64,000 nt of DNA from Eledone cirrhosa (GCA_964016885.1 OZ024746.1:63550001-63614000), one strand, 5' to 3'; shown: positions 49,385-64,000, counted from the stretch's first letter. Translations and numbers: made by a program. The notes: generated by a model from the letters alone, not told the origin.

Positions 49385-49690
49385 AACATGAAAAGTCAAG
49401 TAGACCCCACCAACATGAAAAGTCTTGTTGACCCTAGCAACATGAAAGGCTGTTGACCCCACCAACATGAAAGGCCTTGTTGACCCCACCAATATGAAAG
49501 GCCTTGTTGACCCCACCAATATGAAAGGCCTTGTTGACCCTAGCAAGATGAAAGGCTGTTGACCCCAGCAAGATGAAAGGTCAAGTTGACCCCAGCAAGA
49601 TGAAAGGTCAAGTTGACCCCAGCAAGATGAAAGGTCAAGCTGACCCCAGCAAGATGAAAGGTCAAGCTGACCCCAACAACATGAAAGGCC
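49385..49690. repeat. 26-28 bp minisatellite, about 11 units
   Basis: Unit GACCCCAGCAAGATGAAAGGTCAAGTT. Confidence 0.9.
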
Positions 49691-50230: not shown

Positions 50231-50766
50231 CTGAAATAAAAACAAACCAAAACTTAAAAATAATTTAGAATAAAAAGAAAATGTTATAAATACAAAGTAT
50301 ACAATGACAGAGGGTGAAAATTTAAATTTTATCAAGTGTCTGCTGCAAACTGTCACATTTATATACAAGGTACAGGCTGTTTTATGGACATAAGTTCAAT
50401 TACCGTATATACATGAATATAAGCCATACCTACTATTCTATGAATGAGAAATGAGCAAGAATTCAAACCTTATTTATGTAGAATTTGAAGTTTATGAAAA
50501 TCAAAATATTGATCCTGAATATAAGTTGACCCCTCTTCTATGATCGATATTTTAATCACATATTCCTCAGCTTATATTTGATTACATATAGTATTTGTTT
50601 GTAGACAGATTGCTTTAATACTTTTGATACCTACCCACCCAAAACTGGCTCTGGTTTTAGGAATCAAAGCTACCCATTTTAAAGGGTTCCTACTTAAATT
50701 AAAATCTTCCAACATAATTTGACATAAAAATCTTTTTGTTAAGTTATGTTCCAAATACAATCTTAA

Positions 50767-50959
50767 CCCTTTAGCATTTACATTACTCTATATTTACTAT
50801 TGTATTTTCACGATAAAGGCTTTATCTTACATAATTATCTCACATAATATTGAATCTACAAGATTTTGATGTTATTTATTTTGAGAACAATGTGGCTGGT
50901 TTGAACAAAAAGTGGTGAGAAAGTTCTTACCGGATATGGCCGGTTTAAATGCTAAAGGG
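50767..50959 (+). mobile_element. piggyBac-type MITE, family 1
   Basis: TTAA|CCCTTTAGCATTT...AAATGCTAAAGGG|TTAA. Confidence 0.88.
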
Positions 50960-51114
50960 TTAATATTGAAATAATTTGAGTGAATCCATAACATTTTTCA
51001 TTAATTCAAATACAGTGTATCTCATTAGAAATATGGTAATGAAAGAGTTAAAACAAGAATGAAATAAAATATATATCAACTTACAAGAATGAGAAGTATG
51101 AATTTTTTGGCAGG

Positions 51115-51441
51115 TTATTTGGCGAGGAATTTTCCCAGTAGGAAACTAATGACAACGATTACTAATCCTACTATACAGACAACAATGGGCCAGGTCTTTT
51201 CAGGAGTATTTACTGCAATACTTGGCACCGTGTCAGAAACAGGTTCCTCCTTTGTCTCAGTAACAGGTTCAACTGAATCAACTGAATCAACATCTTCCTT
51301 TTCCTCCTCCTCTTCCCCATTCATTACTTCATCCTCGTCTTCCTCTATTTCAGCAGCTTTCGCAGCTGCTCTCATTTGAATCCTCCGAGTTAACACCGTT
51401 GTTACACTTTCCGATACTGGTGTGTAAACTTCTTTTGTTTC
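51115..51441 (-). CDS. Chromodomain-RS-TM protein, exon encoding the acidic tract and C-terminal transmembrane helix
   Basis: attaacAG acceptor, phase 0; ETKEVYTP...EIEEDEDEVMNGEEEEEKED...TPEKTWPIVVCIVGLVIVVISFLLGKFLAK*. Confidence 0.85.
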   Translation of the reverse strand, partial: ETKEVYTPVSESVTTVLTRRIQMRAAAKAAEIEEDEDEVMNGEEEEEKEDVDSVDSVEPVTETKEEPVSDTVPSIAVNTPEKTWPIVVCIVGLVIVVISFLLGKFLAK

Positions 51442-52139
51442 CTGTTAATCAGATTAAAAAAAAGAAAGAAAAAATTAAAAGGAAAAGTATTTTTATTTTC
51501 TGTAAGAAGCATCTACCTCATTAAATGGTCGTTTGAAAATAAAGCAGAGACCATTATCCTCATTTAATACATCTAACACTCATATATAAACAGCAACATG
51601 GAATTGATACGAAAGAGCCGAACTCCCACTGTCATTGCCTCCATCTCTCCGTATTATGAACAAATGGAGTCCCACGTGCTGGCTGCCCCATGGCCGCGAC
51701 AGACAGAATGGAGAAGGCGTTTCCCTGGAGGATGGTAAGGGAGATGCACTGGAAGAGCCATTCCATCTCACGACGCTCACACCTGCGCCTATGGTGGTAA
51801 ATAGGGAGGTAGCCCTAGAGCCAAGGACAGCAGAAGTCTCCACTGCCAGGGGTACGACCGCAAACCTGACAGAGAGCGACTGATACTTTTATGTCTGTTT
51901 TTCATGCTGGCCGAGATTGGGTTGGATTGGTTGTAAAAGTCTGAGCCAGTCCTTATTTAGAGGTAATGCCCTCCTAGAGGACCATCTCATGCTCATACAT
52001 TCCAGTTTTTGCCATGGTTTCTACAGCTGATTGCCCTTCCTAACATCAGCCACTTTATAGAGTGCACTGGGTGCAATTTATAGAGTCACTAACACTAGAA
52101 AGGTTACTTTATCCACTGCAAAGCTAAAGAGAACTCTCA

Positions 52140-52590
52140 CTATCTTCAAATCGGTGTTTGGGTCTACCCTTAGCTATGGTCATGAATCTTGAATAATAAC
52201 TGAAAGAATACAATTGCAAACACAAGCAGCTGAAATGGGGTTACATCGAAGGGTCTTTTGAATAGTGTTACTCAATAGAGTATGTATCTCAAAGATCAGA
52301 CAGTTGCTCCAGGTAGAGCCACTACTTCTCTGAAGTAGTGGCTCTACCTGGAGATCACAGCTCCAATATTAAGGACATGTGGTTAGAATGTCTAATGAAA
52401 GAATCACTGGACACAGATCTAGAGGTTGACCACAAGCAAGATGGTTGGATAACATCCATAAGCTCAGTTAGTCTTGCTTGGGGATCCATCCAGATCATTT
52501 AGAGAAGGTTGTTTTCGACAGGATTCTTTGCTTGGTGTCTGAAGACTCTGCCACCAACAACCTTCCAAGGAATGAGCCTGACCTGAAGCT
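52140..52590 (+). mobile_element. Decayed RTE/Expander-like LINE 3' fragment containing a 22-bp-arm fold-back (52307-52353)
   Basis: Remnant peptides YGHES.IITERIQLQTQAAEMG, GHVVRM and RWLDNI. Confidence 0.65.
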
Positions 52591-52894
52591 GGAGCCTCTT
52601 TGATTGCAGTTGATTCCAAGGAATCCTATTTAAAGAAAGAAAAAAAAGCTAACCTAATCCCCTTTCCAGAGTTTATTAACCCATTACATTCTTTAATCAT
52701 TTAGTAGAAAATATCTAAAAACGGATTTGTTAATCAAAATGTTTATAGTATCTTTTCTAATGAACAGATTGTTGCAACAATTTGCAGTATTAGAATAAAA
52801 ACTTTAATTTAATGTGATGTAGTCATCTTGTTTTGTACTTTCTTGCTAATGTGGTATCATGTTATACAGATGAAAGAAATTTACAATGGCTTAC

Positions 52895-53224
52895 TGTAGT
52901 TATCCTGGTTGATGTAAAGGAAGTAACAGGAGTTTGTTCGACACCATCATTAGAAAGCTCTGTGACAACTGACTGGCTGTCAACAACTTCTTCCAATTGA
53001 GTTGTACTAGTACTATCTTCTGTAATTTCTTTTGTAACATCATCACTTGGTGGTAGGGTTTCCAAATTTTCAACAGGAGCCGAGCTTTTTTCTTCTTCAG
53101 GTGGAACTATTATTGGTGTGCTTTCTCGAGATGGTTTCTCTGGAGTACCTGTGTCTTTCTTTTGAGGGAGCTTTGTTCTAGTACGAGATCGAGATCGGGA
53201 ACGTGATTTGGAACGACGTCTCTG
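52895..53224 (-). CDS. Chromodomain-RS-TM protein, exon encoding the RS stretch and Ser/Thr/Glu-rich linker
   Basis: TAG/CAG tandem acceptor and ACA|GTAAGC donor; 330 nt, phase 0/0; QRRRSKSRSRSRSRTRTKLPQKKDTGTPEKPSRESTP... Confidence 0.85.
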
Positions 53225-53322
53225 CTAATAAGGGAAGTAGGGAAAATTAAACATAATTTAAATTTAATTTAACATTTAAATACTTCAACTACTATAAAAG
53301 GACTTGAAAGCATCAGTATTAA

Positions 53323-53560
53323 CCCTCTTTTGACCATATTCCTAGTGGAATACACTACCTATGTTTCAATTAATTTTGAAAATATAGTAGTACAAAAACT
53401 AACTTTATTAGTAAACTCATGTTTAGAATATAATTTAATCAAAGGTTCTTATATAAAATTATGATGGCAGATGTTAATCTAAATATGATGTGAACACTTT
53501 AAAATAGACAGTTCATACCCGAATCAGAAATGGTCTTTGGCAAGTTGATGTCAAATAGGG
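53323..53560. mobile_element. piggyBac-type MITE, family 2
   Basis: TTAA|CCCTCTTTTGAC...GTCAAATAGGG|TTAA. Confidence 0.75.
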
Positions 53561-53596
53561 TTAAACAAGAAAATAGGTTTTAGATGCAGTTAGTTT

Positions 53597-53812
53597 AAAT
53601 CTTTAGCATTTACATTATTCTATATATACTATTGCATTTTTGTGGTAATGGCTTTATCTTACATAATTATTTCACATAATATCGAATCTATGAGATTTTG
53701 ATTTATTTTGAGAACAATACCTTAACATTAGAATGAGCAGCCAGTTATGGCCAGTGTTTGAACAGAGAGAGGTGAGAGAATTCTGGCCGGATATGGCCGG
53801 TTTAAATGCTTA
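53597..53812 (+). mobile_element. piggyBac-type MITE, family 1, damaged termini
   Basis: Internal sequence homologous to the 5871 and 50767 copies. Confidence 0.75.
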
Positions 53813-53899
53813 GCAACGGCTAAGAAATTATATTTATACTCCACACTGAAACAAAGTGTTAGAATATAAAGAGAAAAGTTGTTCTTTTCAAGAAGTTAC

Positions 53900-53976
53900 A
53901 GGTGCACCTACATAAATTTATGTTATGTTAGATATGACCAGTGCCAATACTGGCCGAAACCTATCAAAGTTATCAA
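53900..53976 (+). mobile_element. CR1 3'-terminal fragment
   Basis: GCCAATACTGGCCGAAACC.ATCAAAGTTATC resembles the 3' end of the CR1 at 26540-26610. Confidence 0.55.
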
Positions 53977-54809
53977 TTCTTTTAACTAAACATAAGGACT
54001 TTAGGGAGTTGATCCCAGGGTTACTTATTCCAGTAAGCATCACCGGATCCCTACTACTGAATTTAATAAAAATAAGATATAGTAGAATTTTTCATACAAT
54101 TTCATTTTCTGAGAATTATCTCTCACTACATTTGAAGTAATAACTGAGGCATGATAAGCTTCTAGAAACGAGTATCAAAATAACTTGCATTTATTGTAGT
54201 TCGTGTATTACAAATATGGTAACCAAATGTTCCTCGTGGCATGACAAGGTATAATCCTGAATTATAAGATATGGTTGAAAAAAGGTTAGCATGCTTGCGC
54301 TCGATGTGACCAATTTGAGAGGTGCCGCCAAAAGAGTAAGTGAGCAAGAGAGGTCGAGTGACATCAGAACACTCCCTTATATACTGGCCACGGGGAAGTA
54401 ACTCCAATTAGTTTTTTCTCCCCGAGCAAGGTGGCGCTAGTCGTTACAGACAAATTATAAAGAAAATGAAATAAAATTCAGTATATTAGTCATTCTATTA
54501 AACCCAGGGAAAATAAAAGACTTAGCTAACCATGGTAAGATCTGAAGTCACAAACTAAAAGAACAAAACTACACATTGTATATAAAGCATTCTAAATCTA
54601 GTCTCTTCTGTTTTTTTCCAACTATATGATTCATAATATTGGGTGGGCTTTCTTAAATAAAAGTAGTTTCATTAAGTTTAAATCTCGCCGAGGTCAATTT
54701 TACCTTTCATCCTTCTGGAGTCTAAAGTACCAGTAAAGAACTGAGGGAGATATAATTGACCCCCACCCCCCACCTTGTGCCTAAATTAGAAACTATTATT
54801 AAGACTTAC

Positions 54810-54968
54810 TCGAGTAGTTTTACTTTTCTTGTATTCTTCCAGAAGTGGTATTGCACTTGTGAGGTTTGATGCTGGTTCCCAAGAATCTTCTTCAGCGCCA
54901 AAATTCTTCCATCGTATGAGGTATTCTATTTGTCCTCTCTTCTTCCTGTCTTTGAGCACAGCTCCAAT
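54810..54968 (-). CDS. Chromodomain exon (IGAVLKDRKKRGQIEYLIRWKNFGAEEDSWEPASNLTSAIPLLEEYKKSKTTR)
   Basis: Canonical chromodomain pattern EYLIRWKNF..DSWEP..NL; atttacAG acceptor and CGA|GTAAGT donor; 159 nt, phase 0/0. The upstream exon was not found in the window. Confidence 0.9.
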
Positions 54969-55632
54969 CTGTAAATATAACAAAAAAAAATTTTTTTTTT
55001 TTAAATTTTAATATCATGTTTATTTAAAAAAACAGATTTAAACTTAACACCCTGAACCACATAAAACCAAATTAGAGAGACGTGCTCTAAAAATACAAAA
55101 TAGCACCAAGTTGCATCACATTAAAAATTAATCTTTAATAACTGCACATTTTCACTAGTAAAGATACTATAAACATTTGGTACAAAGCAGCACTGACACA
55201 GTTTCACAATATGTCCATTAGTAAAGATAATATAAACATTTGAATTAACAAACCTGTTTCTAGATATTTTCTGCTAAACCATTACAGGATGTTAAGAGTT
55301 ACAGTAACATTTCTGGAAAACATTTAAAAAAATTGTATTGTAAACAACTTGTAAAAACCATAGTTGTCTCTGGATTATATTCTTGTCACTCACTTATGCT
55401 CTGCTAGCATTAAGTTTGCAGACAGGCACTATGACTATAGTACAGTAGATGAACCTCTCTATGGTCACTTGGCCTGCTAGAAACAACAGCCAAATAATCC
55501 TAAACCATACCATTTTAACTCATCACACTATAACGATTTAGCAGAAAAATACCTAAAAACAAGTTTGTTAATTCAAATGTCTATAGTATCTTTACTAGTG
55601 GACAGATTGTTGTGAAATGTTACAATAAATTA

Positions 55633-55818
55633 AAATAATTGTTTCTACTTTTGGCACAAGGCCAGCAATTATCCCAGTGTATTACAAGTACTTTAGTTAA
55701 TCGACCCTGTAAGGATGAAAGGCAAAATTAACCTCGGCAGGATTTGAACTCAGAATGGCAAGGGCCGTAACTCTTTGCTTGGCGTCCGACCCTCTACCGA
55801 TACTGCCAATTCACTGAC
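55633..55818 (-). mobile_element. tRNA-SINE monomer
   Basis: Homolog of the pentamer unit. Confidence 0.85.
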
Positions 55819-56539
55819 TCATTTTTAATGTGATGCAGTCATAGTGATAGTTTGTACTTTATCAAGAAAATTCTGCTAATGTGTTTTGTTAATTTAGATG
55901 TTTATAGTTAATTTACTAAAGGAAAAATCATTTCCAAGACACTTCATCCAGTTATGGTTGGTGGTAAGACTGAAAAATAAGATACGCTTCCTGAAATCAA
56001 ATACTATTCTATTAACCTTCCTTCTTACTAGACTAATACAGAGAACATCTTATCAATCTAAATATTAATCTGGTTGTTATACTAGCTAGTATGTTATCAA
56101 TGATGTAATGTAGCTTTTTATAAATTATGATCGGTTATTTCTCTACTGAAACACCTGCTTAATCTAACATGTCTTTACATTAGTTTACAACTACTGAGCA
56201 CTATATATCTGCTATCATCTCTAACTATTCCAACAAGCATTGCTTTTCTGGACCTATTGACTATATATGCAATCTACCTGTTAACCTATTACATAACATG
56301 CACAGTTTTTTCTTCTCATATATCCTACATGCCTTGCCCTCCTCTCCCAACAGATCCTGTATTTATAAATATAATGTCCACTGAGTTGAAATACAAACTA
56401 CTATACTACAGTCAGTAACATAATAACTGACATTTAATACTAAACTTCCGTCACTGAAATGTCAAATACAGAATATAACAGAAAGATAACTTATTAAAAC
56501 AAGTAACAATAACCAGCTAACACTATTATTATTATTATA

Positions 56540-56763
56540 AGGGTGATGGATTGGCAGTATTGATAGAGCTTCGGACACCCTGCTTCGCTGCAGAGTTATG
56601 GCCCTTCACGTTCTGAGTTCAAATCCCACTGAGGTTAACTTTGCCTTTCATCCTTACGGGGTCGATAAAATAAAGTACCAGTAAGTACTGGGGTTAATTT
56701 AATCGACTTTCCCCTCCCCCAAAATTATTGGCCTTGTGCCGATAGTAGAAATCATTATTATTA
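56540..56763 (+). mobile_element. tRNA-SINE monomer
   Basis: tRNA-like head, conserved core, (TTA)n tail. Confidence 0.85.
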
Positions 56764-57285
56764 ATGATAGAAAAACTAATTTTTTCTTATTTTCTGTTGC
56801 AAAATCACGTAATTCAAGCCTGAAAGAAGATGGTGAATAGTATAGAGTTAAATAAACCCTGAAAGAGTTAATCATTGTTGGGAATGACCACAAGCTCATT
56901 CTTCTAACTACATAACAGACATAGGCCCTATAAACTATAGTGAAGGTAATACATATAAGAGAACAGTCACTTTAAAACTCTCACAGTCACAATAAAAACT
57001 GATACAGAGTAGAAAAGGCTCTAAAGTCCTGTGGTGGTGGTAGGGTCAAGTAAAGTAATGTGGTGGTGATGGTAGGGTCAAATAAAGTAAAATAATATAC
57101 ACTATTTATATAGCTGGGAAACTATAGTTGAGAAACTAAAGCTGGGAAACTATAGTTGAGAAAAACATTCACAACTGTAATGTTTTGTAGTCTATGATAA
57201 TGATTTATTGTTAACAGAACAACAAACATCTGAGACAGGGAAGTCAACCACAGGATGTAGTTTCAATTAACATTATAATACAATA

Positions 57286-57476
57286 GGGCGGTGGATTGGC
57301 AGTATCGGTAGAGGGTCAGACACCATGCTTTCCAGCATAGTTACGTCCCTTTACGATCTGAGTTCAAATCCCGCCGAGGTTGACTTTGCCTTTCATCCTT
57401 ACGGGGTCGATAAAATAAAGTACCAGTAATGCACTGGATAATTGATGGCCTTGTGCCAAAAGTAGAAACAATTATA
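57286..57476 (+). mobile_element. Young tRNA-SINE monomer with a probable TSD (attataatacaatagg)
   Basis: Closest monomer to the 11801 pentamer; the flanking ~15-nt sequence recurs at both ends. Confidence 0.9.
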
Positions 57477-58351
57477 ATACAATAGGGGATTATTGTTATT
57501 ATTATATTTTATTTTTTGGTAAATAGAAGGGGCTACTTTTATACTCTATCCAGTTACAAAACTTCAAAATTAACTGTCAATAGTTTAAAAAATTGGACAT
57601 TTTTCAGATAATCAGGCTTTTTAACTCTTTTGATACCAAACTGCCCTAAACCACCCTGGAGTTAGAGTACAAAATTGCTCATTTTAAAATGTTTATTCTG
57701 ATATTAAAATCATTCAAGGTAATTTTATTTTTAAAAAAGTTTTAAGTAATGTCCTAAATATGAGCTTACTAACAAAAAACTTTTATTATATTTTCTTATA
57801 GTCCTCCAAGTTATTGTCTAACTTCAGGTCACCCTTGATTGAGCAAATTTATTAAATGCTCTCCAAGTGTGACCATCCTGTCTTTTTAGGTGCAAGAAGG
57901 ACTACATTATATAATATACTTTTCTTTTATTTAACATGGTAGATATGATAAAGAAACGCTTGGCTACTATTTCTAGCAAGGCTGCATATAGACTCCCTAA
58001 TAACCTTTTGTCAACAAACATTTCCAGAGTTAATTAAGTCATGCATGTAACAGAATTTACTCATTACAACTGATGACCTTCTTGAGAAGCTGAGGTTTTG
58101 TTTCAATTAAGTTGAAGACAGAGGTTACTACTAACTACTTCTGTATATCATATTTGAAAGTGTGGTTCCCAGTAAATCTGCAGCAGATCCTACAGAATCT
58201 TCCATGTACCCATTGCTTGTACTATCTAAACTATATATGACATTATGGTAAAACTATTTTAAAGCTATTTTATCTCCTACTATAATGGAGGTAATGTTAT
58301 TTCCAGAAAACTACTACTATTGTCGTTAGTGTTACTATTAATATGAAACAA

Positions 58352-58565
58352 GGGCAGTGAATTGGCAGAACCGTTAGGGCGCCACAGAAAATGATTTGTG
58401 TCATTGGTTTTGGCTCTTTACGTTCTGAGGTCAAACCCTGCTGAGGTCAACTTTGCCTTTCATCCGTTCAGGGTCGATAAAATAAAGTACTAGTTAAGTA
58501 CTAGGGTCGATATAGCCCAGCTTTCCCCCTCTCCCAATTTGTTGGCCTTGTACGAATGTTAGAAA
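58352..58565 (+). mobile_element. tRNA-SINE monomer
   Basis: Same core. Confidence 0.8.
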
Positions 58566-59219
58566 AAACTTATACATCATGTCAAAATGGGTAATGCTTA
58601 ATACCACCCTTTCATATTTATAATTATATATAACTCATATATAAGTATAAATAATATTATTAGCATATAAACATGTCATACATTCAATGTATTCCCATCC
58701 ATCAGGGAGATTTGGCTACTAGTTTTAGTAGATTTGAGTGGCCTTGTAGAGGCTCCCTCAGCTCATTACAGTGAACAGTAATGTTTAATGTTTACAACCA
58801 GGTCAGCCATATCAAACTTTAAAAGCTTTCCAGCTGTGATTACACCATAGTTTTTCAACAGCTGATAAAATATCTCAAAACTTCTATTACTACCAAAAAT
58901 ATGTATTTCAAATTAGGCATGAAGCCAGCAATTTTGGGGGAAGGGTAAAGTTGATTAGATCCACCATAGTACTTAACTGTTACTTTATTTAATCAACCCC
59001 CAGGAAGATAAAAGCCTATTTGGTGATAAAAGTAACATATTTTGAATACTCCGATTTTAATAAAGCAAGTTTTTGAATCTTTGTTTAATAAAAATTATAG
59101 TATTTATATAAAAATCTTATTTTAGTATCTGGTGGCTTGTGTCATCATATTGCAATGCCTAGTAGACTGACAAAAAGTAAACGGAAAACAAAACAAACAA
59201 TACAGTACAATGAAAAAAA

Positions 59220-59257
<38 letters not shown>

Positions 59258-59631
59258 TACAGTTCAGGATATTTAAAAAGGACAGCAATTTTATTAGAAT
59301 ATTCTGAAGGTAAAAAACACATAGAAAGAAACATTGCTGGATAGTGAATTTCAAAGCTCCTTTATCAAAACTTTATTTGTATTAACAGGGCTGGGAAGCA
59401 TATTTTTAGTGTAGTGTAATTGTCTGTTTCAAATCAACAAGATTATTCTTGTAACAAAGGATCTTTGTAAGTGTACAGAAGAAAATAACTTATGAAGAGG
59501 TGTGGAAAGGTAGATACTTCAAATAATGGAATTTAAAGCATGTAATAAACATTACTTGATAGAAGAAGAAAAATATCATCTATGAAATAATTACATTTAA
59601 TAACAAATAGATGGCAGTTTAACTATATATA

Positions 59632-59729
59632 CAGGGTGTCCCAAAAATGTATACACACTTTGATTACTTGTACAGGCAATATATATTAGAATGCTTTTGA
59701 AGCGTGCATACATTTTTGGGGACACCCTG
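59632..59729. mobile_element. Tc1/mariner MITE (98 bp)
   Basis: TA|CAGGGTGTCCCAAAAATGTAT...ATACATTTTTGGGGACACCCTG|TA. Confidence 0.88.
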
Positions 59730-62337
59730 TATATATGTGTGCGTGTATGTGTATAAAAACAAATTTTCAAACTACACCACCTTTGTTATTCCATACTCTA
59801 TATTTATGGACAACAACAAAATATAAAGACAATATAAATACCAAATACCCCAATAAAATATAGACTATAGGAGAGGAGAGAGAGAGAAAAGTGGAAAATA
59901 CAAATTTGTTTTACATTGGTCTATTTTGTTTTGACCCTGATAAAGAATGTTAAGGTGTATGAGTGCGTGTGGTGATATTCCATTACAGATATGTATTTTG
60001 ACAAAGGGTGAAATCTGTACAGAGTCTATGGCTGTACAGGACTGAAATATTTGTCCCTTAAAGAGGAAATCCATCATTTGTAATCCAGTTTTAACAAAAA
60101 ACATGGTCAACACAAAACGTTCATTATAACAGGTTGAATGCAAAGCATTTCTAGGTATGGTAATCTTAGTTGTTTACTTTTAATGTTGTAGCTTTACAAT
60201 GCATAATGTGCTCTGTTTTTATAGAGTACTACAGCTAAACTTCATTGTAACACTTTTTTTTAATGCAGGAGACTCAGGGGTAAACCACAAACAAGATGGT
60301 TAGTTAACATCCATGAGTTTGATTATCTGATCTTGCTTGAGGATCCAGCAAGATCAATTGGAGACGATTGCTTCTGGCAGGATCCACAGTGGGAGAAGAA
60401 GAAGAGTACTACAGAAGGAAGCAAAATAATTCAATTGATGATACTAAGTAGTTTATTCTCATGTTCTCTCCACTGTTTATTGAGATTATTCAGACAGAAC
60501 TGATAATTTCAATGGTTACTGGTAGTTGTTGATAAGGTTTGTGTACAGTCGGAGGTGACAGCAGGTAGGCCATTAATGGAGCACAGTCATACACATTCAA
60601 ATATATTTTAACATCTAGTAATCTTCTTCATCCACATATTCTTGAGAGGGTTGTGAGGGCAGAGTCCTCAAAAATGCCTGCCAATGGGTCCTGTCAGGAG
60701 CAATCAGCTTCAATTGAACCGGCTGGCTGCCCAAGCAAGACCAGCCAAGCTCATGGATGTTATCCAACCATCTTGCTCAGTCTACCATTGAGTCTCTTGC
60801 CAGTTGGTTTTGCCCATAAAATCTGTCCAGTGATTCTTTCCTGAGACATTCTAACCACATGTCCATAATGTCGTAGCTGTATTGCAAGTCAAAAAATAAA
60901 CACAAAACATGAACCAGGAGTCAACTCCTTCCTTAGAAGGACATTGGATCAAGTGGCCAAAAGTTTCATCATTGTGTTGTGATGACTTGTGGCTCAGTAG
61001 CCAGCTTCCGAGTAATGGTCAAACAAGAATTCAGGACTCACCAGCGTAACTTTTTTCCTAAAAAATTATGGACATATAGTATTATATAGATTACCATTGG
61101 TGCTATTGTCCATGGTCACTGACCCTCAGCAATGAGGATGGGTAGAGGCCAGACTAAATTCTTATAGATAAAATTATATGGAACACCAAATTCCCAAACA
61201 TTTCAATGTATGAGCTAATAAGTAAATCTGTGTTCTCTCAACCTGCTAAAAATAGCTGCAAACCTTCATCAAATCACATTCCACGTGTCTTAAAAATGGG
61301 AAGGATAAATTTGGGAAGTCATAAACTTTACAATCAGAAATAACATTTCTTTAAAACAAATAGTTATTGGTCCAAGTAATATCTAATAAAACGATACATA
61401 TTATCAGTTACAGTCAAGGATTAGGTTGTAGTTAGGGCCAGAGGCTAATTTTATCTAAAGTGAAATATGTATAGCTTCTGTTCTTTCTTTTAAAATTATG
61501 ATACTGCCTTTCCTCAGCGTTAGGGCTATCCCAGGTGGCTTAAATCAGTTTTAGCTGGGATTATTATCTCTCTTGCCTTGTGGGAAGTGACAGATGTGTT
61601 CAGCTCAAACAACAGTAGCCCTAAATATGTAAATAAGCCATGAAATAGATTAATAAATATTGCAATTTTTATGTCAGAATTAATACCAAAATAACAGCCT
61701 TGCATTCTTGAACCAACACTAGAACCTCTGCATGGTTGCTAGAGCTGCTAAAAACAGCAGCCAAATCTCCCTCAAATCACGCCTTACATATCCATAAAAA
61801 GATGGTTGGAGGTTGGAATGTGTTTGATCATAGGTCTGCTTGATAAAGGCTGGCCTGGGACTAAACAACAACAGATATGCCAGAGAAGGTTTTTTTTCTT
61901 CTTTCTTTTCTGCTCATATCTTTTTTTATTACTCCATTTATCCACCACCTCCAACACCATCACAAACCATTATTTGGAGCAATTCTAGGTAAACATATGT
62001 TTTAATACAATAACCATGACATCAGTTAAGTTTATGGTAATCATGCACTCTGAATCCTAGTTATTAAAATGAGTAAAATAATGTTTGTAGATTTAATTGA
62101 ATATGTATAAAAAAAGAACAAAGATATTTTTTTTTTTAGTAACTGTGTTAATGTGTAAATTTTTGTCACCTTTTACATTAAATGGAACTTCTACGTGGTT
62201 GTTGACATGACAGAATAACTAAATAGCCCTTAAATTCATACTGCATTGTCTTAAAAGTGGGAAGGACACATTGGATAATGCTGTCATAGCTAGATACTCA
62301 TAAAAAGACAGGAACGTCTCATATGGAATACCTTTAA

Positions 62338-62520
62338 CCCTTTAATGTTCAAACCGGCCAAAATTCTCTACCTCTTTCTGTTGAAACTGGCCGCTCAAAC
62401 TGATGTTAAGGTAGTTCTCAAAATAAATACTTTCAAAATCTCAGATTCGATATTATGTGAGGTAAAGCCTTTACCATGAAAATATAATAGTATATATAAA
62501 ATAATGTGAATGCTAAAGGG
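62338..62520 (-). mobile_element. piggyBac-type MITE, family 1
   Basis: TTAA|CCCTTTAA...GCTAAAGGG|TTAA; reverse orientation. Confidence 0.85.
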
Positions 62521-62884
62521 TTAAGTATAGGTCTGTTCAATTGGGGATTGACTTGAAGATAAAAAAACAACACATTTATTTTTACTTAGGTTTAGACACC
62601 ATTGTAGTAAAACAATCTTTTACAAAATTTCTAGTTAATTCTATCCACCAATCTGAGGTGCAGCTTGCTCCAGCTCCTCCTCAACATTTCTACATCTGAT
62701 TTTCAATGCTTGCATGGATGGGACAGCTGGGTTCTCTTTGGGACAGCATCTCTCCACTCAGCATTCCTTCATCATCATGTCAGTTTCAGTGATTTTGAAG
62801 CCATTTCTCACCACTTCCACACAGAAAACCTTCCCTTGGCAACAATACCAGTAGGTATGAGTTTTTTGTTGAGCTTTATTTTTT

Positions 62885-63390
62885 CAAGAAGTGATCTAAT
62901 TAGCAGTGGAGTGGGTGCTTTGAAAGCATAGTAGCTAGAATAAGAACAGTTATAGAAGAGGTTTAGAGAGCTACTACTCCTGTTGGAAACAAAACGTTTC
63001 TCCATATGAACAGAAGGTCGACTGTATGATACTTGTGTGTGATGCTACGTAATAGTGAAACATGGGCAGTGAACAAAGAGAGCATACTTTGATTGATGTG
63101 CAATGTTAATGACAAAACATGGATGAAAGAGGAATCAGATGTAGTCTGCAGGAGAGAAGACACATGTGATGTGTATGAATGATAATTACTGGATGGAGAA
63201 GTACCAAGAAATCCCAGTGGAAGGAAGCTGCAGTAGATGAAGACTAAAGAGACCTGGGCAGAAATGGTGAGAGCTGATTTCATATTGCTGAAGCTCATGG
63301 AAGAGATGGCAAAGAATTGCAATGAGGGAAAAGATGCTGTACTGAAAAAGATCCATCTAAGCATACAGGTGTGGAAAAGTGGATGTAAAA
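62885..63390 (+). mobile_element. Old, decayed RTE LINE 3' fragment (family B-like)
   Basis: Nucleotide similarity to about 22795-23378 (AGAGAGCTACT..CTGTTG, AGTGAAACATGGGCA, ACCTGGGCAGAAATGGTGAGA). Confidence 0.7.
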
Positions 63391-64000
63391 TAATTGTTTC
63401 TACTTTTGGCACAAGGCCAGCAATTACCCAGTGCATTACTGGTACTTTATTTCATCGACCCCGTGAGGATGAAAGGCAAAGTTTAAAATAATGATGATGA
63501 ATCTGAAATGCACTTACTATCTCATACATACAAAGCCAACCCCTTTCTTTAAATATAGATTAACACTACAAATACTTAGTTACCTTCAATTATTTGTCTC
63601 AAGTTTCCACTGTAAGTTAACTCATCTCCAGTCCTGTTCCAGTACAATATTACATTATACACCCCATCTATCCTTTATATGGGAACAACGAAAACTATCT
63701 TCAGCAAAAAAAAGCAGCTACAATTCTCAACTCCTTTCATCTCCTTACCCAACATTCAGAACTTTCAACACTAATTAGGTCACATGTTTTTGATTTTATG
63801 TAGCAACAGCTAAATAAATATGAAACACAGGTCACTTGAAAGAATGGTAACCTTGATTTACTTAAATTAGACAGCAGGACTTGAAACTAAGAATGTATAT
63901 TGTCTATATTTTATTTAAAAGGTTCGTTTAACATTAATGAAATATATATAGAGAGAGGAAAAAATATAGAATGTTCACACACACACAATTATATAAGTTA

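Follow-up and report, generated by a model that had tools for sequence, protein, structure and literature searches.

A gene in Eledone cirrhosa raises the question of what a chromodomain is doing on the same small chain as a transmembrane (TM) helix. The gene lies on the minus strand of a 64,000-nucleotide stretch of the genome (GCA_964016885.1 OZ024746.1:63550001-63614000; hereafter the window, numbered from its first letter). On sequence grounds, its product is probably, though far from certainly, an inner-nuclear-membrane (INM) methyl-lysine reader that tethers methylated heterochromatin, most likely carrying H3K9me2/3, to the nuclear envelope. It belongs to what is apparently an undescribed, conserved family of membrane-anchored chromodomain proteins.

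Three exons in the window join into 271 amino acids (Table 1), with every junction in phase 0, AG acceptors and GTAAG donors; the exon chain proposed by the first-pass annotation is thus borne out. Support for the chain comes via orthologs. RefSeq models from two Octopus species, together with Logan contigs (1.3-2.7 kb, without introns) in which the complete chromo-to-TM protein is encoded, span both the chromodomain and the TM exons, which accordingly appear to belong to one gene. Three DNA runs from one sample matched the exons, and no differences in coding sequence were listed; they behaved as genomic DNA, and no splice joints were seen in them. The gene appears to be single-copy in the E. 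cirrhosa genome, since the only matches to the chromo exon are the exon itself and, at 50%, a second locus, the genome's CDYL gene.

The domain order originally annotated, in which a chromodomain is followed by an arginine/serine (RS) tract, an acidic linker with two TPEK motifs and a C-terminal hydrophobic helix, is present in the sequence. Pfam Chromo matches exon 2 (E 4e-12), the basic/RS stretch has a net charge of +14 in 27 residues, and the 173-residue linker has a net charge of -29 and is 25% S/T. In the AlphaFold2 (AF2) model of the O. sinensis ortholog, the chromodomain and TM helix are confidently predicted (the helix with a predicted local distance difference test, pLDDT, of about 93-95), and the linker is mostly disordered, with one helix in a block conserved among coleoids. 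The modelled chromodomain superposes at ~1 A on the H3K9me3-bound chromodomains of MPP8, CDY1, Chp1 and HP1. Identity to cuttlefish-like sequences is 81-82% in the chromodomain and 56% in the TM/tail region, as against 29-37% in the linkers, a pattern that was counted in favor of a tether. A homodimer prediction for residues 140-274 scored 0.01, and the ESM Atlas gave no usable match for two family members.

The first aromatic residue of the methyl-lysine cage is missing from the window, and had been expected from an upstream exon. That exon has been located: exon A, 12.1 kb upstream of exon 2, supplies Tyr8. An alternative first exon, exon B, lies 19.9 kb upstream and lacks a cage aromatic; both are outside the window, and six candidate first exons inside it were dropped once the true ones had been found. 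The N-termini of orthologs are mainly of two types, each with its encoding exon upstream in the E. cirrhosa genome. The best PDB matches are CDYL, CDYL2 and CBX5, whose cage residues line up with Y8, W29 and F32. The three-aromatic cage typical of methyl-lysine-reading chromodomains is therefore complete in isoform A and incomplete in isoform B, and the reader function first attributed to the protein as a whole would be expected of the former only. Across the family, 19 of 22 aligned members have an aromatic residue at every cage position. Mercenaria likewise has two N-termini that meet at the same point, with Tyr at the cage position in one and Leu in the other. For human CDYL1a, a splice of this kind is described as removing the first cage residue and, with it, H3K9me3 binding (PMC2787366). 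From the sequence, H3K9me is the likeliest ligand of the chromodomain.

Octopus vulgaris, O. bimaculoides, O. sinensis, Argonauta and Sepia, along with Logan contigs, supply the nearest proteins, and profile searches recovered chromo-RS-TM orthologs in four mollusc classes. These include gastropods (Haliotis, Batillaria, Babylonia and Nucella), bivalves (Saccostrea, Solemya, Mercenaria, Potamilus and Tegillarca) and a chiton (Liolophura). A TM motif, (D/W)-x-P...(S/T)F-x-x-E, is common to most of the molluscs, and the hydrophobic tail is retained in the orthologs. Other elements of the original description are more restricted. The acidic linker with TPEK motifs holds for cephalopods, but other molluscs have basic S/T-rich linkers; similarly, cephalopods, the chiton and several others are tail-anchored, but many bivalve and gastropod orthologs continue for tens of residues past the helix. 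Several bivalve, chiton and brachiopod orthologs contain SP[GSA]R motifs resembling the SRPK1 docking site of LBR. Babylonia (P0036/P0086) and Nucella (P0042/P0170) each have two family paralogues.

Proteins of 170-265 amino acids with the same layout, a single N-terminal chromodomain and a hydrophobic helix at the C-terminus, are also found in a brachiopod (Lingula), a nemertean (Tubulanus), a priapulid (Priapulus), a centipede (Strigamia), an echinoderm (Diadema), a hemichordate (Ptychodera) and a cnidarian (Nematostella). Among the best 150 of 3789 matches, a hydrophobic segment (Kyte-Doolittle value, KD, >=1.85 after residue 100) occurs in 20 of 26 proteins with a single N-terminal chromodomain and in 1 of 123 other chromodomain proteins; the first count includes O. 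vulgaris P0001, whose gene-model tail is doubtful, and the set is biased towards the family from which the profile was built. There were no vertebrates among the named matches in these best 150, a list crowded by multi-chromodomain proteins. Two further matches are worth recording. In P0116 (Cimex lectularius), a C-terminal hydrophobic stretch (KD 2.06) comes after three chromodomains; this may be a multi-reader form in an insect or a case that arose independently. In P0050, from the nematode Soboliphyme baturini, the chromodomain groups with the Priapulus member on a long branch (Shimodaira-Hasegawa-like approximate likelihood ratio test, SH-aLRT, 97) and is followed by a short hydrophobic patch; it may point the way to nematode anchors like CEC-4.

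It is possible, though we lean against it, that the non-mollusc look-alikes arose separately and that the octopus gene is a mollusc-specific CDYL offshoot, a question of ancestry and not of mechanism. The mollusc TM profile scores weakly outside the molluscs (8 bits for Lingula, 3 for Tubulanus, -4 for Priapulus and -1 for Nematostella), and in a 55-column chromodomain tree the family does not form one clade, with nine background rows inside the main 30-row group. Resolution is poor in this tree, where 68 of 96 branches are open; it uses 100 of 169 rows, leaving out near-duplicate isoforms and fragments and including no named metazoan CDYL. The family label nevertheless clusters strongly on it, requiring 9 changes compared with 22.7 when shuffled, and none of 500 shuffles was as low. 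Moreover, a tree constrained to one clade was 17.8 log-likelihood units better than the free quick tree (approximately unbiased (AU) test, p-AU 0.71), and the N-terminal position of the chromodomain and the overall layout are identical across members. Common ancestry of the mollusc and non-mollusc members is thus plausible, a single origin not being rejected by the AU test.

The protein falls outside the defining domain sets of the LBR, CDYL, HP1 and LEM families, in agreement with the initial remark that its architecture matched no named family. The closest chromodomains, both in the PDB and in the E. cirrhosa genome, are those of CDYL, CDYL2 and CDY. An N-terminal chromodomain of CDY type is indicated by the top PDB matches (CDYL and CDYL2) and by a shared intron position: E. 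cirrhosa CDYL has the same phase-0 intron, with its acceptor at the same codon position just inside the chromodomain. The human CDYL1a/1b pair also switches its cage off and on through an alternative first exon. However, CDY and CDYL proteins have a C-terminal enoyl-CoA-hydratase (ECH)/crotonase domain, which the octopus protein lacks, having a membrane anchor instead. HP1, Polycomb CBX and MPP8 share the canonical three-aromatic chromodomain fold but are soluble proteins, and the chromo-shadow, CBX C-terminal and ankyrin domains that they carry are all missing here; the chromo-shadow domain is absent although one ortholog is named 'heterochromatin protein 1' at NCBI.

Functionally, the proposed equivalent is C. 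elegans CEC-4, which carries a chromodomain and holds H3K9me chromatin at the INM; the likeness is one of function and not a sequence comparison. CEC-4 is not known to have a TM helix. In the accounts drawn on here, it anchors H3K9me at the INM, is associated with the nuclear envelope and is described as lacking an obvious mammalian homologue (PMC4783997; see also PMC7111258 and PMC9988841). In overall plan the octopus protein also resembles emerin and LAP2beta, which have a small N-terminal chromatin-contact domain, a disordered linker and a single C-terminal TM helix. These carry a LEM domain, which Pfam does not find in the octopus protein, and whereas LEM proteins reach chromatin through BAF, the octopus protein would read the mark itself. 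No description of a chromodomain-TM protein of this kind was found in the full-text literature, including by searches with six accession numbers, in a corpus that does not extend to supplements or most subscription papers.

The comparison with LBR drawn in the first-pass annotation is instructive in a different way. LBR likewise has a Royal-family reader, an RS tract and a membrane anchor in that order, with CDK and SRPK-type sites. However, its reader is a Tudor domain and its anchor an ERG4/ERG24 sterol-reductase multi-TM domain, in place of a chromodomain and one helix followed by a stop. Pfam finds Chromo in 14 of 14 family members and LBR_tudor in none. Because the chromodomain is CDYL-like, and neither the chromo nor the TM profile shows similarity to 120 LBR-type proteins, the likeness is better described as analogy than as kinship. 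An origin by LBR fission was set aside for similar reasons: among the 120 LBR-like reductases listed of 621 matches (<=751 amino acids), none has a chromodomain, and none resembles the TM profile.

In molluscs, moreover, LBR appears not to carry a reader, which would leave room for a chromo-RS-TM protein. LBR_tudor is present in echinoderm, amphioxus and vertebrate rows of the same list of 120, and in 0 of its 23 mollusc-named rows. Among 16 named mollusc LBR N-termini, most of those from gastropods and bivalves open straight into RS-rich sequence; octopod LBR, with 23 residues before its membrane domain, carries neither Tudor domain nor RS tract, and in the E. cirrhosa genome a stop codon stands in frame just upstream. 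An LBR_tudor search of that genome gave no match, but neither did its control, and this result is not evidence of absence.

If the octopus protein is an INM tether, it may work as follows. The C-terminal helix would insert in the endoplasmic reticulum (ER) so that the N-terminal part, of 28.6 kDa, faces the cytosol or nucleoplasm; the protein would then diffuse past the pore, and its binding to chromatin would keep it at the INM. Access of this kind is to be expected, since the N-terminal part is far below the INM size limit of ~60-75 kDa given in PMC6359192, in which emerin provides a tail-anchored INM precedent. The chromodomain would bind methyl-lysine in ARKS motifs, and the basic RS tract could add DNA or histone affinity and clustering, as in LBR, with clustering in the membrane adding avidity. 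Phosphorylation of the RS and S/T-P sites by SRPK and CDK could free chromatin in mitosis, and dephosphorylation could help membranes to re-coat it. Depending on the first exon chosen, the protein would or would not read methyl-lysine, as in CDYL1b/a. For LBR, PMC5617974 describes chromatin binding by the reader and RS tract, regulation of the RS tract by SRPK1/CDK1, and an N-terminus that, with the first TM, suffices as a nuclear envelope reporter.

Several observations weigh against this model. A chromodomain and a TM helix are also compatible with residence in the ER or outer nuclear membrane. One cage aromatic is missing in 3 of the 22 aligned members (Mercenaria X2, Ptychodera and Tubulanus). 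The clasp positions, I7/S47, are mixed in octopods, and the first is often acidic in bivalves; as clasp residues are reported to set K9/K27 preference in CDY proteins (10.1101/820647), the preference between K9 and K27 cannot be called. Four non-mollusc members (Lingula, Diadema, Ptychodera and Nematostella) have a weak RS tract. The canonical TM helix is missing from two automatic gene models, O. vulgaris P0001 and Sepia P0010, and TM-less isoforms may exist, although the skip in P0001 looks like a mis-splice. Nor is the protein strictly complementary to LBR, as Diadema carries both a Tudor-LBR and a chromo-TM protein. Pfam missed a Tudor-like start in LBR P0255, the N-terminus of a second LBR-like paralogue was not found in the E. 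cirrhosa genome, and LEM-domain matches in that genome are other possible tethers.

Alternatively, the protein could be an ER or outer-nuclear-membrane component that acts mainly outside interphase nuclei, catching chromatin at mitotic exit or meiosis for envelope reassembly, or linking the ER to microtubule tips through an SxIP isoform. Exon B, the invariant core of which is limited to SRLP[VI], passes a nine-residue SxIP rule requiring a disordered basic context (from PMC3649978) in E. cirrhosa and in 5/5 exon-B database proteins tested, against a background of 1/284 tiles. The motif is kept in octopods and cuttlefish-like sequences, and a second passing motif follows the RS tract in octopods; isoform B is thus, by sequence, a candidate SxIP-type microtubule plus-end tracking protein that may bind EB1. 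PMC3649978 offers STIM1 as a membrane-bound precedent, but also describes credible SxIP motifs that frequently fail to bind EB1. SxIP is not family-wide, and the small N-terminal part should permit INM access, so this alternative seems unlikely. Less likely again is a model in which the chromodomain reads a methylated non-histone protein, such as an ARKS-like site in a methyltransferase, or a nucleic acid, and sequesters or scaffolds its partner at the membrane. The cage and n-2 pocket residues match those of H3K9me readers, and the neighboring basic RS tract suits chromatin, even though CDY-family chromodomains are reported to bind ARKS motifs of non-histone proteins (10.1101/820647), the top fold match is MPP8 with a bound DNMT3A methyl peptide, and some members tolerate cage loss. 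It is quite improbable that the TM helix holds a latent chromatin factor off chromatin until proteolysis or TM-skipping splicing releases a soluble chromo-RS fragment: the AF2 model does show a long, disordered linker and two database models lack the TM helix, but full-length cuttlefish-like Logan proteins all end in it, no conserved cleavage motif is apparent in the alignments, and the internal donor for an O. vulgaris-type skip is poor in E. cirrhosa.

Exon 3 has a NAGNAG acceptor (TAG CAG, window 53224/53221), and the downstream AG may be the one used, since the additional Gln is absent in other octopods. The inferred intron in the 3' untranslated region (UTR) is based on O. vulgaris model P0001, which uses a homologous downstream exon. 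Downstream of the gene, at window 49390-49690, is a tandem repeat with units of ~25 bp. Outside the gene the window consists of fragments resembling long interspersed nuclear elements (LINEs) and of microsatellite; at 10000-46800 there are long AT/ATAC tracts and several reverse-transcriptase-like (LINE-type) open reading frame fragments, with no further genes evident there.

Table 1. Positions of the gene's features in the window and, with L or G000 labels, elsewhere in the E. cirrhosa genome
Feature	Position	Strand	Remarks
Exon A, MSSEEDIYE	L003:3050-3076 = G000:C6:63617050-63617076	-	cage Tyr8; phase-0 GT donor; isoform 280 aa
Exon B, MMPTPSRLPIACSRTRK	L004:819-869 = G000:C6:63624819-63624869	-	without cage aromatic; SxIP-type motif; phase-0 GT donor; isoform 288 aa
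First intron, part in window	54969..64000	-	extends beyond window end to the two alternative first coding exons
Coding exon 2	54968-54810	-	53 codons; chromodomain body (cage W29, F32, full-length numbering) and start of basic tract
Coding exon 3	53224-52895	-	110 codons; RS tract 53224-53171, TPEK, acidic linker, start of coleoid-conserved block
Coding exon 4	51441-51115	-	108 codons and stop; rest of conserved block (predicted helix), acidic stretch, second TPEK, TM helix
Predicted TM helix, WPIVVCIVGLVIVVISFLLG	51133..51192	-	best 19-residue KD window 2.98; then five-residue tail KFLAK and stop
Inferred 3'-UTR intron	50231..51084	-	GTAAGT donor 30 nt past stop; TTTCAG acceptor before 50230
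E. cirrhosa CDYL	G000:C173 (L002, L013-L017)		chromo exon ~34.3 kb, ECH exon ~23.7 kb, i.e. ~10 kb downstream
LBR/TM7SF2-like sterol reductase	L007:1504-2790, G000:C14	-	single exon; ~23 residues before membrane domain
Second divergent ERG24/LBR-like gene	L009-L012, G000:C14:21.3-21.6 Mb		multi-exon, ~285 kb

The means by which H3K9-methylated chromatin is kept at the nuclear periphery are an open question, and few direct anchors are known in animals; a 2025 paper notes that whether lamin A/C and LBR recognize H3K9me2/3 directly is unknown. With reader and membrane anchor in one small chain, and proteins of this layout in tractable animals (Nematostella, sea urchin and oyster), direct tethering would be testable by single cage mutants, and cell lines might make use of the protein as a minimal tether. 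A separate membrane-bound group is concealed behind database names such as 'HP1', 'CDYL-like', 'cec-1-like' and 'MPP8-like'. More tentatively, it may be that this group represents an overlooked ancestral eumetazoan integral-membrane H3K9me reader that anchors heterochromatin directly to the envelope, derived from the CDYL chromodomain lineage and found from cnidarians to molluscs and echinoderms, but apparently absent in vertebrates, where Tudor-LBR, HP1 and PRR14 would serve this purpose. It could then be a main tether in cephalopods, as the cephalopod LBR has lost its chromatin-binding N-terminus, with the exon switch converting it into an EB1-binding linker between the ER or envelope and microtubules.

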